Of a stretch of 64,000 bases of DNA, positions 12,733-55,916 are shown piece after piece. The number at the start of each line of letters is the position of its first letter. Positions within the stretch are counted from its first letter, which is position 1. The stretch is taken from positions 5,600,001 through 5,664,000 of the forward strand of contig CM000151.3 in assembly GCA_000004695.1 (NCBI GenBank), written 5' to 3'. The notes beneath the pieces are model-generated. The model was given only the letters and a program-made list of their open reading frames with translations. It had not been told where the DNA came from and searched no databases. A program made the translations under genes and the position numbers. This DNA comes from Dictyostelium discoideum. Its lineage: Eukaryota.

Positions 12733-13341
12733 GATGTTGATATAGTTTTTGATAAACCTGTTTCTAAATTTTTATCTTTAATTATTATTGGTGTTGTTGA
12801 TTCATTTTTATTTAAATTATTTTCATAATCGTAATCATTATCTTGTTTAGTATTAAATGGAATTGATGTCCATTTTTTCCACTTTATAAAATAACCTCCT
12901 AAATAAAATGAAAATATTGATGTTCCAAAATATGTAAGAAAGAATGGTTTATCATATGATTCACTTGTAAAAATAATCTATATATATATATTTATTATTT
13001 ATTTATTTAGAAAGGTAAATATTAGTATTGTTGGTAAATAATTATAATTTAAATTTAAAAAAAAAAAAAAAATATAACATACTTGAGTAATAATACTTGA
13101 AGCTACCCATAAAGATACAACTGATAATACTAATAAACTACCAATAACATGCCTTCTAACTTTTTTAGTATTTGATTCTTTTTGTGAAATTGATAAAGGT
13201 AATTCATCATCTTCATTATCACCATTTATTGATTTAATGATTGGTGTAATATCGGTGATTTCATTACTACTTATACTACTACTACTTCCTTTATTAATTC
13301 TATTATTATCTTTGTTATTACTATTATTATTACTATTATTA

Positions 13342-13373
<32 letters not shown>

Positions 13374-13568
13374 CCGTATATATTTATTGTTATTTATATC
13401 GTCTGTTATTATGTACAATTCTTCATTTTCAATTATATTATTATTTTCATAATGGTTCACATTATTATTATATTCATATTCTACATTATTGTTATTATTA
13501 TTATTATTATTGTTACTAGTTATTATATCACTTTCATTATTATTACTATTATTATTATTATTACTCAT
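11769..13568 (-). CDS. SLC35F/EamA-like (drug/metabolite transporter superfamily) multi-pass membrane transporter. Three exons on the minus strand: 13568..13083, 12977..12460, 12357..11769.
   Basis: The N-terminal Asn-rich low-complexity region is followed by about 10 predicted TM helices. Motifs typical of SLC35F/Thi74-like carriers are present (...FFLTYFGTSIFSF..., ...LAIVGAFLYGLYSVLVKK..., ...SPVINSIGLSLSIPFAMISD...). Both introns are about 100 bp, GTATGT..TATAG and GTAATT..TTATTAG. The joined frame matches ORF 11769..12197 (MPMMFGY...). Confidence 0.75.
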
Positions 13569-13867
13569 AATTTATATGTGTGATAGTGCATAGGGTGGTC
13601 AAAAAAAAATGAAAAAAAAAAAAAAAAAGATATTTTAAATGTAAAAAATTAAAAAAAAAAAAAAAAAAAACGGGGAACTAATTAATTCCCTTTATTATAA
13701 GATTTTTTTATTATTTTAAATAAAGAGTTCTGTTTTTTTTTTTTTTTTACTATTTTTTTATTTTTGTGACAAACTGGTGTCTATAAAAATTTAAAACACC
13801 CAAGCACTTTATTTTTATTTTTATTTTTTATTTTTTTTTTCTTTAAATTAAAAAGATATTTATGTCG

Positions 13868-13900
<33 letters not shown>

Positions 13901-13947
13901 TAAATTATTTTAGATAATAATAATAATTTTTTTTTTTTTCTTTCATA

Positions 13948-14936
13948 ATGAATGAAAATTCTATTTTTGTTTCTATTATAAGTTATAGGGATAGTGGTAT
14001 ATATTTTTTATTTTTATTCTTATTTTATAACAATAATTGTTAAGTAAAAAAAAAAAAAAAAAAAAATTTATAAAATTTAACAACTTTTTTTTTTAATTTA
14101 TAAAATTTTAGAATGTCAATGGACTATCAAGAATTTAATTGAATTAGCAAAATATAAAGAAAATATATTCATTGGAGTATGTTTACAATATTCAATGAAT
14201 GATGATAGTGATAATAAATGTTTTCAATTTAACTTTGAAGAAGAATATGGTAAAAATCAAATAAGAATTATTAGAATGAATCATACAGAGGCCAAAGGAC
14301 CATGCTATGCAAGAGCATTAGTTCAACAACAATTATTCAAAGGTGAAAAATATTATCTTCAAATTGATAGTCATATGAGATTTGTAAAAGATTGGGATAT
14401 AGAAATGATAAATCAATTATTACAATGTAAAAAACCAAATGATGATAATGGTGGTATGGTTATTGATGAAAAAGCAATTTTAACATGTTATCCAATGGGA
14501 TATAAATTACCAAATTTAATACCAACTCATAGATTTCCAATATTATTAGTGGCAAGTGGATTTGGAGAGAATGATGGTTTCTTAAGATTAGGCGGTAAAA
14601 TTGTATCAAAAAAGTTAATTGAACCATGTTCATCATTATTTTGGGTTTCAGGTTTTAGTTTTTCACGTTCAGATATAATTAATAGTGTACCATATGATCC
14701 AAATTTACAATATCTTTTCTTTGGTGAAGAGATATCAATGTCTGCACGTTTATTCACTCATGGTTATAATTTTTATAGTCCAACTAAAACTTTAATTTTT
14801 CATCTTTGGAATAGAGATTATCGTTCAACATTTAGAGAAAATAATTCTTTAGAGATTCAAAAATTGGAAGAAAATTCAAAAAAAAGGTTATTAATTTTAT
14901 TTAATCAAAATAATAATAATATTAATGATAATGATG

Positions 14937-15032
<96 letters not shown>

Positions 15033-15053
15033 GTAGTAGTAGTAGTAGTAGTA

Positions 15054-15092
<39 letters not shown>

Positions 15093-15102
15093 GTAGTAGT
15101 AC

Positions 15103-15135
<33 letters not shown>

Positions 15136-15334
15136 TGATGGAATTAAAATAGAACTTAAATATAACCTTGGTAAAATTAAAAGTTTAGATGATTATTCAA
15201 ATTATTGTGGTGTAGATTTTAAAAATAAAACGATTAATAATAAAGGTAAATTTGGGGGTTATTATGAAGAAAGAGAAACATTTTTTATGAATGAAATTAT
15301 GGAGTATGTAATTAAATCCCAAATCGGTATTTAA
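13948..15334 (+). CDS. Cytoplasmic GT-A-fold glycosyltransferase resembling the Skp1 hydroxyproline GlcNAc-transferase Gnt1 (GT60-like). Two exons: 13948..13996, 14112..15334. Predicted length about 423 aa.
   Basis: Exon 1 ([16 protein letters not shown]) plus exon 2 gives the SIFVSI(A/I)SYRDSECQ N-terminus typical of this family, with no signal anchor. A DxH motif (QIDSHMRF) is present. The C-terminal half contains a poly-Asn/Ser insertion of about 70 codons, (AAT)n/(AGT)n. The identification as the Gnt1 orthologue itself is from memory of the family and is not certain. Confidence 0.7.
14932..15130. repeat. (AAT)n with an (AGT)n block. It forms a coding poly-Asn/Ser insertion in the glycosyltransferase.
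   Basis: Direct reading. Confidence 0.95.
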
Positions 15335-15905
15335 ATTGTGTTTAATAAATATAAATTATATTAAGATAATAGATAAAAAACAATTTGAATAAATAAATAA
15401 ATATATTATTATTTTAAAAAAATTATTATTATTTGTATTTCTTTTTTTTTATTATTTTAATTTATTTTAGATTTTTTTTTTATAATAATAATTCTGGCCA
15501 ATTCTACAAAAAAAAAGTACTAAGAGATTTAAAAAGTCATAAAAGATTTTTAAAAAAAAAAAAAAACAAAAAAAAAAAAACGGTTTGTGTGTTGTTTATT
15601 TTTAGTTTTTTTTTTTTTTTTTTGTTTATTTTTTTTTAATCAGTGTTATTACCAAAAACCTCTAATTTATTTATCAAAAATAATAAAAAAAAAAAAAAGA
15701 TTTCATAAATTTATCTGTTCCTTTTTTTTTTTTTTTTTTAAAATCAAACTTTTTTTTTTTTTTTAATTTAAATTTCTTTTATTATTATTTTTTTTTTTTT
15801 TAATTTAAATTTTCTTTTTTTGAATAAAAACTTAATTTAATTTTTAGTTAATCATTTAAATTAAAAACATTAATTATATATTTATTTATTTATTAAAAGA
15901 AAAAA

Positions 15906-16901
15906 ATGAATAAATTATTAAATATTTATTTTAATTCAATTAGACCTGGATCATATTTATTTCCAAGTATTTCAATTGTATTTTTAACACCAGCATTATA
16001 TGTTCAAGATCAGCTTAATTTCGGATTAACATTTTATTCAATTTTTACATTTTATGTTTTATATTATCTTGGATCACAATGGAATACATATTTAGATTAT
16101 ATTACTGGTGTTGATAATAGTAAATCTGATGATAAAACATTATTTGGTGTTATGTCATTAGGTGAATTAAAAATTGCAATGGCTCTATCAGTAATTATCA
16201 ATTATATTTCAATTGGAGTATTATATTTTTATTTAAAATTTATAGAATTGCAATCTGAAAGATTCGGAACAATAGTTTTAATAAATACTTTATTAATAAT
16301 TGTAAATTTATTGTACACCCCATTAAAGTATATTGTAATTGGTCAATTTTCAATAAGATTAACATCATATGTCTTCACCTTATTAATAACATATATAAAC
16401 AGTGGCGTATTCTCATTCTTTGATAGTAATGATCCAATACCTTGTTATTCCTTATTATTCCATTTCTCATATCATCATTGGCATTTGCAAATTGTCTTAG
16501 AGATTTAAAACTTGATAAAGAAAGTGGAATCATTACCATAACAATTCTATTTGGTGAATTTATTTCAAAATATTATTACGTTTTTTGTTTTTTTGTGTAT
16601 GTATAAATTTAAAATAAAATAATAAAAAAAAAAAAAAAAAAAAAAAAATGTTTAGAAAAACTAACTTTTGAAAATAATTAAAAAAAAAAGAACTTATTAT
16701 TATTTATTTTGGTTATCAGGAAAGTTTGGTAATATTTGGTTATTTTTAGTTCCATTATTAATCTTACCATTTTTATTCATCTTTTGTAAGGGTTTCTTAA
16801 AAAATGGAAACTATCAAAAATTAAACCTTAAAACATTCAAATTATATTATTTATTTGGATTTGCAATGTTAATTGGTATAATTATTGGTGGAAAGAAATA
16901 A
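15906..16901 (+). CDS. UbiA-superfamily prenyltransferase, UBIAD1/MenA-like, with an apparent internal -1/+2 frameshift near 16420-16440 and an intron at 16597..16690. It may be a pseudogene, a sequence error or an unusual transcript.
   Basis: Frame A (ORF 15906..16508) encodes the MenA/UBIAD1 first motif WNTYLDYITGVDNSKSDDKTLFG (UBIAD1: [20 protein letters not shown]). The second motif LAFANCLRDLKLDKESGIITITILFGE (MenA: NNxRDxxxDxxxGxxTL..G) is in a different frame that opens only after four consecutive stops at about 16418-16429. The C-terminal exon (16691..16901: ...LVPLLILPFLF..KLNLKTFKLYYLFGFAMLIG) matches the UBIAD1 C-terminus. Confidence 0.65.
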
Positions 16902-16991
16902 TCATCATACCCCTCTCCCCCCAACTGTCACCCCATCCCAAGTAAATTATAATTTCTTATTTAAATTTTTAATAAATCCAAACTATTTATT

Positions 16992-17088
16992 TTATTGAAT
17001 TGTACAGTCTTTTGATTTATGTTCTTTTTTTATATTTTTTCTTTTCTTTTTTACATGATGACTATTACTATTACTATTACTTAATTCA

Positions 17089-17177
<89 letters not shown>

Positions 17178-17730
17178 GTTATTATTATTATTGATTTCAT
17201 TTTCTGTAGTTGTGGTGGTGGTTGAAATTATTGTTGTTTGACATTTAGATTCTTTTTCAATTGCTGTTATGAACTCAGTATATGAATCTGATCTATGATC
17301 AATAGTTAGAGAACGACGATTAGGTAGTCTAATGAATAAAACTAAGTGGTCACCATCAATAATTCCACTATCTTCAATTGTTGAACCTTCTTCCATTCTT
17401 TTTTTATTTGATAATAGTAAACGTTGTTGATCTGTATATTTAAGAAATTAAAGAATTATAAATTTAAATATTTTATTTTAATTTAATTAAATAAATTTTA
17501 ATTTATATTATAAACAATCAATTAAATCATAATTTTTTTTATTTTTTATTATTATTTGGTTGAATTTTTTATTTTTTATTTTATTTTATTTTTTTTTTTT
17601 TTTTGAAATTCTTACCAAATGGAGTATCTGTATGCTTTTCAATTTTTCTTTTGATATCTTCAGTAGTATCTGATGGATTTACTTCCAATTCAAATGAATG
17701 GCCTAATAAGGATCTAATTGTAATTTTCAT
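16992..17730 (-). CDS. Ubiquitin-like (beta-grasp) domain protein with an Asn-rich linker and a basic C-terminal tail. Two exons on the minus strand: 17730..17616, 17431..16992.
   Basis: Exon 1 encodes MKITIRSLLGHSFELEVNPSDTTEDIKRKIEKHTDTPF (the ubiquitin beta1-beta2-alpha1 pattern). After a 184-bp intron (GTAAGA..ATATACAG, phase 1) exon 2 continues DQQRLLLSNKKRMEEGSTIEDSGIIDGDHLVLFIRL (the ubiquitin C-terminal half), then poly-Asn and a Lys-rich end. The exon 2 start is anchored to ORF 16992..17396. Confidence 0.65.
17097..17195. repeat. (ATT)n of about 33 units. It encodes the poly-Asn linker of the ubiquitin-like protein on the minus strand.
   Basis: Direct reading. Confidence 0.9.
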
Positions 17731-17815
17731 TTTAAATATTTATTTGTTTATTTATTTTTTTATTTTTTAATTTTTTTATTTTTCTTTTCTTTTCTTTTTT
17801 ATTTTTTTTTTAAAA

Positions 17816-17846
<31 letters not shown>

Positions 17847-17996
17847 ATAAGAGAATAAAAGTTCATTGTTTATCTGAAAAAAAAAAAAAACAAAAATAAA
17901 AAAATAAAAATAAAAAAAATTTGTTTGATTTTGATTTTTTTTTGAAATTTAAGCTAAAATAAGTACATGTTTTCGTTTAAAAAAAAAAAAAAAATT

Positions 17997-18052
17997 AAAT
18001 AAAATAAAATAAAATAAAATAAAATAAAATAAAATAAAATAAAATAAAATAA
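17997..18052. repeat. (AAAAT)n microsatellite of about 11 units in intergenic DNA.
   Basis: aaataaaataaaat... read directly. Confidence 0.9.
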
Positions 18053-18131
18053 AGTAAAAAATACTAAAATAAAATAAAAAATATTAAAAATAAAAATATA
18101 TTAATTTGAATTACAATTATAATATATATAA

Positions 18132-18165
<34 letters not shown>

Positions 18166-18503
18166 ATACTTAATTAATTAGCACAATAATTTAATTCAAG
18201 TATCAAAGTTTTAAAGTGAGAGTAAAAAACAAACAAATTTTATTAATTAATTAAAAAAAAAAAAAATTAATTCTGAAAGTTAAAAATAATCACAAAAAAA
18301 AAAAAAATAAAAAATAAAAAAGAAAAAAAATTAAAAAAAAAAAAAGTTACTTATTTTAATTTAATTTCTTTAAAAGTGAAGATAAAAAAAAAGAAAAAAA
18401 GAAAAAAAAAAATATCTTAACGCGTGATTAGTAAAAAAAAAAAATTATAAAAATTAAAAAAATTAAAAAAATTAATTTAAATAATCAACCAATGACTATT
18501 CAC

Positions 18504-18534
<31 letters not shown>

Positions 18535-18737
18535 GCAAATTTAGAAAAGTTAAAAAAAAAAAAATCATCATTGATATTATTATTTTTTTCTATTTTTTAA
18601 TTATTTTCTAATTAATTTTAAAATGTTGACTAAAAAAAAAAAAAAAAAACAAATTTTTTTTTTTTTTTTTAGTTTAGTATTTTTTTTTTTTTCTTCTGAT
18701 AGTGAATAAATTAAATTTATATAAATAATAAAATAAA

Positions 18738-19736
18738 ATGGAACCAATCTTTAAATCAGAAGATAGAATTTGGTATGTGACTGGTACTAGCTCAGGTTTA
18801 GGTTTAAATTTAGTTACACAATTAGCAAAGAAACCAAATACTAAAGTTGTTGCAATTACTCGTAATCCAGCAGAAACAAAAAGTAGAATTGATCCAGAAT
18901 TATTAGAAAATGTTTTTATAATTAAAGCTGACGTTACAAATGAAGAAAGTGTAAAAGAAAGTATTAAACAGACAATGGAAAAATTCGGAAGAATTGATTG
19001 TGTTGTTAATAATGCCGGTTTTGGTATTGCTGGTGCTGTGTAATTATCAAATTTATTATTTTATTTTATAATTAATTATTTTATTTATTTTTATTTTTTT
19101 GTTTAGAATAAAAAAAAAAAAAAAAAAATATTAATTACGATTTAATTTTTTAATTTAAATTTTAGTGAAGAAATTTCAAATGAAGAAATGAGAAAAATCT
19201 TTGATGTCAACTTTTTTGGTCTTTTAAATGTAATTCGTAATGTTAATCCAATCTTGAGAGAACAAAGATCAGGTTTTATCTTCAATATTTCATCAGTTGC
19301 TGGTTGGTTAGGACTTGGTGAATTAAGTGCTTATTGTTCTTCAAAATTTGCTGTCACTGGTTTAACAATTTCTTTAGAACAAGAAATGGCTCAATTCGGT
19401 GTAAAAGTTGTATTAGTATCACCAAGCGGTTTCAAATCAAGTTTTGTTGATACTGGTATGAGTCTTCCAAAGAATAGAATCGATGTATATAAAACTGATG
19501 ATCGTTGTGTATGGTTAGATGATATTGTGAATAATGCACGTGGTAATCCAGATAAATTCTCTGAAGTCGTAATTAACATTTCTGAATCTGAAAACCCACC
19601 TAAAAACATATTTTTAGGAACTCATGCAATGCAATTCATGAGAGGTTGGTTCGCAGCTCAAACTGCTGAATTGGAAAAGAATCTTCCAATTACAATTGGA
19701 ACCGATTATGAAAATGCTCCAAAAATTGAATATTAA
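18738..19736 (+). CDS. Short-chain dehydrogenase/reductase (SDR family). Two exons: 18738..19039, 19166..19736.
   Basis: The SDR signatures are present: TGTSSGLG (TGxxxGxG cofactor site), NNAG, and the catalytic S...YCSSK (YxxxK). The intron is GTAATT..TTTAG in phase 2, and joining gives ...GIAGAV-V-EEISNEEMRKIFDVNFFG..., consistent with both ORF-track frames. Confidence 0.85.
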
Positions 19737-20255
19737 AAATAAAATTTATTTTTTTAATTTTTTCCAACCCCAACGTTTACACAACTGTTTTTATTTTAAA
19801 TTTTAAAATTTTAAATTTAGCAAATGTTTTTCATTTGAAGAAAAAAAAAAATATTATATAAAAATAAATTCAAAAGAACATTAACATTAATTTTCCCATG
19901 TAAATTGAATATTTTTTTTTTAATAATTTAATTTTATTATAAAATAAAAAAATTAAATACTTTTTTTAATAAAAATTAATTTTAACTTTAATAAGTTTAT
20001 AATATTTTTATTTTTGTTTTTTTTTATAAAAATTAATATAAAATAAAAAATTTAAAATAAAAAAAAAAATATCTTGTGATTTTATCTCCATTTTATTGAT
20101 ATTTATTTCCAAAAAAATATCTTTAAATAAATTTTTTACATTTTATAAAAAAAAAAAAAAAATAAAAAAATAATCCTGATATTGATTTGATTTGATTTTA
20201 TTTTAATTGTTTTACAAAATTAAAAAATATTATTATTATAAAAAAAAATAAAAAA

Positions 20256-45147: not shown

Positions 45148-45601
45148 TGAATTACCTTTGTAATTGTGGGGTTGTTGGTAAAAGTTGGGAAAAAATTAAT
45201 GTTATATTCTCAATTTCGGGAATATTGAAGGCATTTGTTTTTGTTTGTTGTTAAATTGATTTTTTCTTTTTTAAAAAAAATGATTGTAATGATGGTGATA
45301 ATGATGATGAAATTTTACTACCATTTTGAATATATCTTGAAACCAAATCAACTAATAATGGGCTAAATATATTTGAGATTAAGGAGGGATATTCTGGTTT
45401 ACTCATTAATAAATTTGAAATCTCTTCAACAATGAATAATTTATCTTGTGATGTAAATTCATTTTCTTTTTTTTTGAAAATTTGTTCAAAACTTTTGAAA
45501 TCTTGAATAATTGTTGATGATGAGGATTCATTTTTGATTTTTGTTAATTCTAATTCTAAGGCTTTAATAGCTTTAAATATGTTAAATTTAAATTTATACA
45601 T
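27361..45601 (-). CDS. Midasin (MDN1/Rea1) AAA+ ATPase, a giant ribosome-biogenesis protein. Exons on the minus strand: 45601..~45254 (N-terminal), an unresolved small segment ending near 45156, ~45034..30991 (the ~14 kb main exon, whose ORF-track portion is 13.8 kb), 30921..27610, 27507..27361.
   Basis: Six AAA modules with Walker A sites: GVTGSGKTT, GETGTGKTS, GPTSSGKTS, GETGCSKTT, GSPGVGKTS, GPTSTSKTS. A long linker is followed by the D/E-rich region and the C-terminal MIDAS/VWA domain (LLAIDDTESM...). The terminal peptide is ...LRQWFDLTKSTQ*. The N-terminal exon (ORF 45251..45601) and the extension upstream of the ORF-track start (…SLWDWTPLFSLLEIKSQRITWYVIKSMSMVLN…) align with the human MDN1 N-terminus. 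Introns 30990..30922 (GTAATG..TCACAG) and 27609..27508 (GTAAGT..TTATTAG) were checked against the ORF frames. Confidence 0.9.
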
Positions 45602-45875: not shown

Positions 45876-46908
45876 AAAAAATGAAAACGAGTTTGAGGAT
45901 TTTAAAAAAACGAAAGGGGTTTTGAGGATTTCAAAAAACCGAAAAAAAAAAAAAATAAAAATAAATAAAAAATAAAAAATTTGAAAAAAAAAAATTAAAA
46001 ATAAAAAAAAAAAACGATTGCAAAAATAAAACAATAACATATAATATACACTAGCTGATAAAAAAAAAAAAAAAAAAAAAATTAGTAGAAAGTCCTTTAG
46101 TAGTTTTTTTGATTAATTTGACCGACCAAGATTCACACATTTTATTATTTTTTTTTTTTACTTTTTTTTTTTTTAAATTTTTTATTTTGGGATTCTTGGA
46201 AATTAATTTAATCATCCCAACAGAGAGTTAAAAATTCCAAAAAAAATATTTCAAACTTTTAACAAATAATAAAAAATAATTTTAATTAACAAATAATAAA
46301 AAAATAAAATAATATAAAATAAAATAAAATAAAATAATATAAAATTAAATTAAATTAAATTAAATTAAATTAAATTTTTATTTTTTTCAAACAAATTGAT
46401 TTAATTTAAAATTTTTTTCCTTTTTTTGTGATATTGGAATTTATATGAAAATTTTATTTGATTAGTTTATTCAATTGGACTTGAATTTAAAATTATTTTC
46501 CTTTTTAAAATCGATTTCATTTTATTTTAAATTTAATTATTTTTGTATTTTAGAAAAAAAAATTTTTTTTTAAGTTTTTAAATTTCCCATATTTGATTTA
46601 AACTTAAAAATAAAAAAATAATAATAAAAATTAATATAAAAAAAAAAAATTAGCTTTGCAAAAAAAAAAAAAAAAAATTAATATTTTTTTTTTTTTTTTA
46701 ATTTTTTTTTTTTTAATTTTTTTTTTTTTAATTTTTTTTTTTTTAATTTTTTTTTTCATTTTTATTTTTTTTTTTTTTAATTTTTTTTTTTTTCAATTTA
46801 TTTAACATACATACCCTATCACATACACATAATTACATATACACCTTTTTACATATATCATTTTTTTTTTTTTTCACAAAAAACTTAAACTTATATAAAT
46901 AATATACA

Positions 46909-55283: not shown

Positions 55284-55916
55284 GGTTTTTTAAAACTGAT
55301 TTTAGGCTTTTTATTATTTTTTAAAAAATTCTATTATATGGTTATATATTTGTTTTAACTTTTAAATTTTATCTTTAATTTATTTTTTATAAATAATCTG
55401 AATAAAAATAATAATTTAATTATAATTAATACTATTAAAATGAGTTGATAGAATTAACTATAAAAGGATAATTAATATTATTAATTTAATAATTTTTGGA
55501 GTTATTTATAATAATTGAAAATATTTTTTTTAATAATATATAATTCATAAAAATTAATTAATAATACTATTTAAATTAACAATTAATAAAATATTGATAC
55601 CAATAAATGAATGTAATGATATATTAAAATTAATATCAACACCACTATTAAATGATGATATAAATGGTTTATTTTTAATTTAATATAAATTTTTTTTTTT
55701 TTTTTTTCCTTAAAAAAAAAAAAATTATAAATATATATTATTTATTTTGAAGTTTTATTTGAAAGGTAAAATGATTAAAAAGTTATAATAAAAGAAATGA
55801 ATTGATTGGATTATTTACATTAAATTGTTTAATAAAATATAAATAATAATTTTTTTACCTATTATTACTATAAATTATTACAATTTTAATTTTTTTTTTT
55901 TTTTTTAAAAATTATT

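Follow-up and report, generated by a model that had tools for sequence, protein, structure and literature searches.

The frame break in the UBIAD1-like gene DDB_G0275791 of Dictyostelium discoideum AX4 is most likely an artefact of the reference sequence

Is the prenyltransferase gene DDB_G0275791 broken in the cells of Dictyostelium discoideum AX4, or in the reference sequence of this strain? The question arises from a stretch of 64,000 nucleotides of AX4 chromosome 2 (assembly GCA_000004695.1, contig CM000151.3, positions 5,600,001 to 5,664,000; hereafter the window), in which an ORF at 15906..16508 on the + strand is identical to the annotated 200-aa product of this gene (XP_643452.2, EAL69646.2, UniProt Q553G1). 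The original prediction, made from the window alone, described a UBIAD1/MenA-like gene whose frame changes between its two Asp-rich motifs, and named three possible causes: recent inactivation to a pseudogene, an indel from sequencing or assembly, and an unconventional event. The dictyostelid origin that it assumed is correct. The deposited sequence does contain the frame break, which has also left its mark on the public annotation. DDB_G0275791 was mentioned in no paper found in a literature search, and the only paper with both UBIAD1 and Dictyostelium was irrelevant.

Two open frames and a missing base

Translation of the three forward frames reproduced the predicted arrangement of two overlapping open frames. 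In frame 0 an ORF of 200 codons runs from the ATG at 15906 to the TAA at 16506-16508 and carries the first Asp-rich motif, NTYLDYITGVDNSKSDDKTL (N60-x3-D64-x5-D70...KSDD), at 16083..16142. The second motif lies in the -1 frame, in which four consecutive stops (TGA TAG TAA TGA, 16421..16432) set the 5' limit for a frame switch. This frame is open from 16433 and carries ANCLRDLKLDKESG, with the motif N196-C-L-R199-D200-L-K-L-D204 at 16490..16516; AFANCLRDLKLDKESGIITITILFGE is encoded in the same frame. The overlap of the two open frames, put at about 80 nt in the original prediction, measures 73 nt (16433..16505). A clean intron of 94 nt (16597..16690, GTATGT...AG), also recognised in that prediction, joins the C-terminal exon in frame. 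Exon 1 is composed of an upstream part (15906..16480; codons 1-191 and the TG of Cys192) that includes the first motif and a downstream part in the -1 frame (16481..16596) that includes the second, and exon 2 (16691..16901) supplies the last base of Val231, residues 232-300 and the stop codon at 16899..16901. All of these features are on the + strand. In the annotated ORF the final nine residues, WHLQIVLEI, are out of frame.

The best explanation of the locus is that DDB_G0275791 is a two-exon gene encoding a 300-aa membrane prenyltransferase with nine helices, belonging to the UBIAD1 branch of the UbiA superfamily. With its 200 aa, the reference gene model (Q553G1) is probably in error; the correct model would have 300 aa and two exons. 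An intact 300-aa protein is already in GenBank, as KAM9945662.1 from the AX2 assembly. A search with the rejoined protein returned three clusters, all from Dictyostelium.

The loci of eight comparison genomes were aligned at the DNA level: AX2-214, four wild isolates of the discoideum clade, two D. citrinum and D. dimigraforme. This comparison with orthologues, which had been suggested as a means of pinpointing the indel, located a deletion of 1 nt. A T is absent between G16480 and G16481 (+ strand), so that the AX4 reference has CATCATTG-GCA where all eight other genomes have CATCATTGTGCA. The codon affected is that of Cys192 (TGT), and TGTGCA has become TG-GCA. The interval of 16400-16480 in which the lesion had been expected was close, but the actual site, 16480/16481, lies at its very edge. 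The site is outside any homopolymer. The other genomes (8/8) read CATCATTGTG there, all with intact products of 298-300 aa; it is the AX4 reference that deviates.

Two further changes are private to AX4. At 16358 (+ strand) the reference has an A (AGA, Arg151), where AX2, CR116C and OT3A have a T (AGT, Ser) and the others have Ser, Gly or Thr codons. At 16441 (+ strand) it has a C (CCT, Pro179), where the discoideum clade has an A (CAT, His) and citrinum and dimigraforme encode Ala. The three AX4-private changes (16358, 16441 and 16480/16481) are packed in 124 bp. Outside them the coding sequences of the gene in AX4 and AX2 are the same, and the 327 nt of coding sequence after the lesion, that is the rest of exon 1 and the whole of exon 2, are without a single difference.

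All eight orthologues have an intron at this position. It is bounded by GT..AG, measures 73-124 nt and, once excised, leaves a coding sequence that matches the annotated protein exactly in every case. In AX2 a shorter A-run reduces it to 90 nt. Pairwise dN/dS among the intact orthologues is 0.10-0.40, as expected under purifying selection, and the gene is therefore functional and constrained in the discoideum/citrinum/dimigraforme clade.

The frame breaks inside helix 6 (residues 177-199). The 200-aa product lacks the second Asp-rich motif, helices 7-9 and four of the five invariant residues of the family alignment described below (R199, D200, D204 and G217). Both Asp-rich motifs of UbiA enzymes hold the Mg2+-diphosphate, and a protein with the first motif alone, as the reference product is, would be inactive.

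Relationship to UBIAD1 and MenA

The annotated 200-aa product alone gave no match in a Pfam search. The rejoined protein scored 51.1 bits against Pfam UbiA (PF01040), above the cutoff of 34.2, and the C-terminal part that is out of frame in AX4 matched the same family by itself (E 2.4e-9, 37.3 bits). Together, these scores show that the resemblance to UbiA is not due to chance. In a single-sequence search of the PDB the only real match was UBIAD1 (8djk_B, E 8.6e-13, residues 10-297 against 14-293), with which the rejoined protein shares NTY-D-----D-KSDD-TL and N--RD---D--(S/A)GI-T--IL-G. Both Asp-rich motifs are thus present in the rejoined protein, the second of them being out of frame in AX4.

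In an exhaustive profile search of 1.84 billion representatives, no cluster other than that of the query passed 1e-30, and 1e-10 was passed by 14 proteins. The closest relatives are dictyostelid paralogues (DDB_G0269330 / Q55E99, 32% identity, and a 308-aa group), followed by animal UBIAD1-like proteins, D. purpureum DICPUDRAFT_41654 and C. fasciculata DFA_07339. The closest matches outside amoebozoan sequences carry the name UBIAD1-like. In an alignment of 53 sequences Y137, R199, D200, D204 and G217 are invariant, and R13, N60, D64, D70, Y142, G146, N196 and T211 are nearly so. The profile of these sequences matched UBIAD1 in the PDB at 1.7e-102, a value that is partly circular as the profile contains animal UBIAD1-like sequences. 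Its other PDB matches were digeranylgeranylglyceryl phosphate synthase (9e-20), chlorophyll synthase (2e-14) and archaeal UbiA homologues (5e-7 and 1e-4). An AlphaFold2 model built on the same alignment has nine long helices and a pLDDT of 93.3; an earlier structure prediction from three close sequences reached a pLDDT of 41 and was discarded. The top PDB fold match of the model is UBIAD1 (TM 0.76/0.80), followed by other UbiA-family enzymes.

Judged from sequence and predicted fold, the protein is a UBIAD1-like but divergent member of the UbiA superfamily, and it belongs to a small expansion that is specific to dictyostelids. The predicted activity would be the transfer of a polyprenyl group to an aromatic acceptor, with menaquinone-4 as one possible product. 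Animal UBIAD1 (human/hamster, PDB 8djk/8djm; Drosophila heix), which also has a regulatory role towards HMG-CoA reductase, is similar to it in length and nine-helix layout, and shares both its first motif, N-T-Y-x-D-x5-D...KSDD(K/R)TL, and its second, N-x2-R-D-x3-D-x2-(A/S)-G-I. The Dictyostelium protein differs from animal UBIAD1 in that the identity is only 21-25% and that its gene is part of an expansion of at least three paralogue groups, which makes it an unlikely one-to-one orthologue. Bacterial MenA (1,4-dihydroxy-2-naphthoate polyprenyltransferase) belongs to the same superfamily, and weak full-length matches to MenA models of NCBIfam were obtained (E 4e-7 to 1e-2). However, these score 15-30 bits against cutoffs of 102-522 bits; the best model reached 29.7 bits against a cutoff of 346, and TIGR00751 reached 15.2 against 102. 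A MenA equivalog was rejected on account of this wide margin. Of the predicted UBIAD1/MenA-like identity, the UBIAD1 part is therefore borne out by the best PDB match in both sequence and fold, whereas the MenA part, taken as MenA proper, is not.

The dictyostelid paralogue groups, at least three in number, are about equally distant from animal UBIAD1 (~30-32% identity). DDB_G0269330 (Q55E99, 'Prenyltransferase', 291 aa) is 32% identical to the rejoined protein over the full length, shares the motifs and the GGKK C-terminus of that protein, and is conserved across the same set of species. Unlike DDB_G0275791, it is located at a separate locus on another contig and has a full-length product (291 aa) in AX4. 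The original prediction held that loss or retention of the gene matters biologically. A loss would weigh less than that suggests, since at least one paralogue, DDB_G0269330, is present in AX4. The 308-aa UBIAD1-like group is present in OT3A, M4B and S6B. At the level of 50% identity, no genomes other than those of discoideum, citrinum and dimigraforme yielded the DDB_G0275791 type.

Origin of the missing base

AX2 and AX4 are both descendants of NC4. Contig JBTAPE010000033.1 of the ACTFIT assembly matches the window with 99.64% identity over 7.0 kb and with 99.50% identity over a further 22.6 kb, while the other assemblies named 'D. discoideum' are ~91% identical to it in the 7-kb region. Three D. 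discoideum assemblies, AX2-214, CR116C and OT3A, have been described (Holland, Ahmed and Levin, PNAS 2025, PMC12745789), and AX4 and AX2 were 99.5% identical at another locus in that study. From this near-identity, the list of assemblies and the order of the accessions, we infer that ACTFIT is AX2-214. The same study gives the coverage of the AX4 reference as 8, and discusses neither reference errors nor DDB_G0275791 (PMC12745789).

Over these 29.6 kb, AX4 and AX2 differ by 45 SNPs and by 24 indels, nearly all of the latter in homopolymer length. At the reported nuclear mutation rate of 2.9e-11 per site per generation (PMC3466296), fewer than 0.1 SNP would be expected to separate the two sequences even after 1e5 generations. 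Nearly all of the discordance must therefore be technical. The SNPs are furthermore strongly clustered, with 39 of the 45 located in five clusters (16358-16481, 18054-18134, 45170-45560, 46346-46414 and 55285-55341), and clusters of the AX4-private type recur about every 6 kb. Wherever polarity can be judged, which is the case for the UbiA-gene cluster, 18054-18134 and midasin exon 1, it is the AX4 reference that appears aberrant. Discrepancies of this kind have been noted before: Saxer et al. 2012 (PMC3466296) reported 1,916 reference differences shared among AX4-derived lines, and ascribed them to reference errors or clone differences. The frame break is of the same character. The lesion site itself was not listed in the literature found on AX4 reference discrepancies.

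The T present in eight other genomes, the excess of SNPs, their clustering, the aberrant state of AX4 and the differences reported by Saxer et al. point to a local error of base calling in the 8x Sanger AX4 reference as the best explanation for the missing T, and we consider this technical origin likely. The loss of the T from the Cys192 codon (TGT) in the reference displaces the frame in helix 6 and brings about the stop at 200 aa. The substitutions at 16358 and 16441 would likewise be base-call errors in a low-quality Sanger stretch and not part of the organism's DNA, and living AX4 cells would carry the same intact gene as AX2. A second 200-aa entry, UniParc UPI00004E3632, has Ser151 instead of Arg151, with Pro179 and the frameshifted tail unchanged. 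This suggests that successive releases differ in the base call at 16358, the later one having departed from the state of the relatives. An exact look-up of the 200-aa AX4 product found it absent from the contig index. The 300-aa product was found by exact look-up in the AX2 assembly only, with no read-derived contigs, and its protein cluster has no read-derived (Logan) members.

Of the other causes in the predicted set, the pseudogene takes a minority share. According to this reading, the AX3/AX4 lineage truly lost the T and gained two substitutions after the NC4/AX2 split, and AX4 is a natural knockout of a UBIAD1-like paralogue. A true lineage lesion predicts what is seen, namely that all three changes are private to AX4 and that the lesion is absent from AX2; in addition, the missing base is outside the homopolymers in which indel errors are commonest. 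The truncated product without R199, D200, D204 and G217 would amount to a null allele, the loss of which the paralogue DDB_G0269330 could buffer. AX3 was obtained after chemical mutagenesis, which can yield clustered mutations. Nitrosoguanidine, however, typically gives G:C>A:T transitions, and the AX4-private changes are mostly at A:T pairs; those in the UbiA gene are T>A, A>C and the loss of a T. Because of this mismatch of spectrum, nitrosoguanidine was rejected as the origin of real mutations in clusters. At a rate of 2.9e-11 per site per generation (PMC3466296), moreover, it is not believable that three changes arose independently within 124 bp, and the same type of cluster is met about every 6 kb, including one with a stop in midasin exon 1. 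There is also no decay beyond the lesion: the downstream coding sequence is that of AX2, and with dN/dS of 0.10-0.40 among the relatives no relaxation of constraint is seen past the first lesion. We consider a genuine pseudogene unlikely. If the lesion were real, the DNA of AX4 would read CATCATTGGCA, with an A at 16358 and a C at 16441. In that case the prenylquinone metabolism of the two most used laboratory strains would not be the same, and a null mutant would be at hand in AX4. Such a difference in one prenyltransferase would be of modest interest to those comparing AX4 with AX2.

It is highly improbable that the AX4 gene is functional as it stands, by way of an unrecognised small intron, programmed -1 ribosomal frameshifting or RNA editing. 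A shift within the 73-nt overlap of the frames would yield a full-length protein. However, an exhaustive scan for GT..AG and GC..AG introns revealed no frame-restoring intron that spares the NCLRD motif: all 25 frame-restoring candidates have acceptors at or beyond 16500, and each cuts into or deletes the second Asp-rich motif. A missed intron was rejected for this reason, in agreement with the original prediction that no GT..AG intron reconciles the two frames. A slippery heptamer (X_XXY_YYZ) was searched for in 16430..16510 and is absent, and the eight relatives, all in a single frame with the extra T, neither conserve nor need a recoding signal; programmed -1 frameshifting was likewise rejected. 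Insertional editing of nuclear mRNAs is not known from Dictyostelium. With the unconventional event rejected and the lineage pseudogene unlikely, the base-call error is the best of the three causes named at the outset, and the frame break most likely arose in sequencing rather than in the organism.

Reference-private clusters elsewhere in the window

The main value of this result is practical, as an annotation correction. A UbiA-family model without its second catalytic motif would mislead orthology assignment, proteomics and metabolic reconstructions. This part of AX4 chromosome 2 carries reference-private clusters that break ORFs. Since such clusters recur about every 6 kb and include the midasin stop, apparent frame breaks should be checked against AX2 before a biological reading is attempted.

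The midasin case concerns a cluster at 45170..45560, where 14 AX4/AX2 SNPs fall within 390 bp of exon 1 of a midasin/MDN1 homologue on the - strand. The homologue was assigned by its Pfam midasin lid domains, and its ATG is at 45601. The AX4 reference encodes KKKKSI*QQTK, with an in-frame TAA at 45253..45251, whereas AX2 encodes KKKKSTKQQTK, in a frame that continues from the ATG to the splice donor. Since midasin is an essential protein of yeast and AX4 a healthy laboratory strain, the stop codon is best read as a reference error. Exon 1 of midasin in AX4 probably holds another cluster of such errors, which distorts the model of a very large gene. Besides the stop, several non-conservative changes are seen in the same exon.

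The cluster at 18054..18134 is intergenic, 1.6 kb from that of the UbiA gene, and consists of five SNPs and a 5-nt AACAA insertion that are private to the AX4 reference. At the alignable sites (18054, 18101 and 18106) the wild isolates side with AX2. At 46346..46414, AX4 has T where AX2 has A throughout an (AAATT)n stretch, and at 55285..55341 six SNPs are found in 57 bp beside a T-run. In these two clusters, the error may in some cases lie with the AX2 assembly (Nanopore/Illumina).

The wild isolates CR116C and OT3A are ~91% identical to AX4 over 12900..19900, with a dS of about 0.09-0.10 in the UbiA gene. This divergence is far above that of typical North American isolates. Tropical isolates have been described as genetically diverged (PMC12745789), which is consistent with the ~91% identity.
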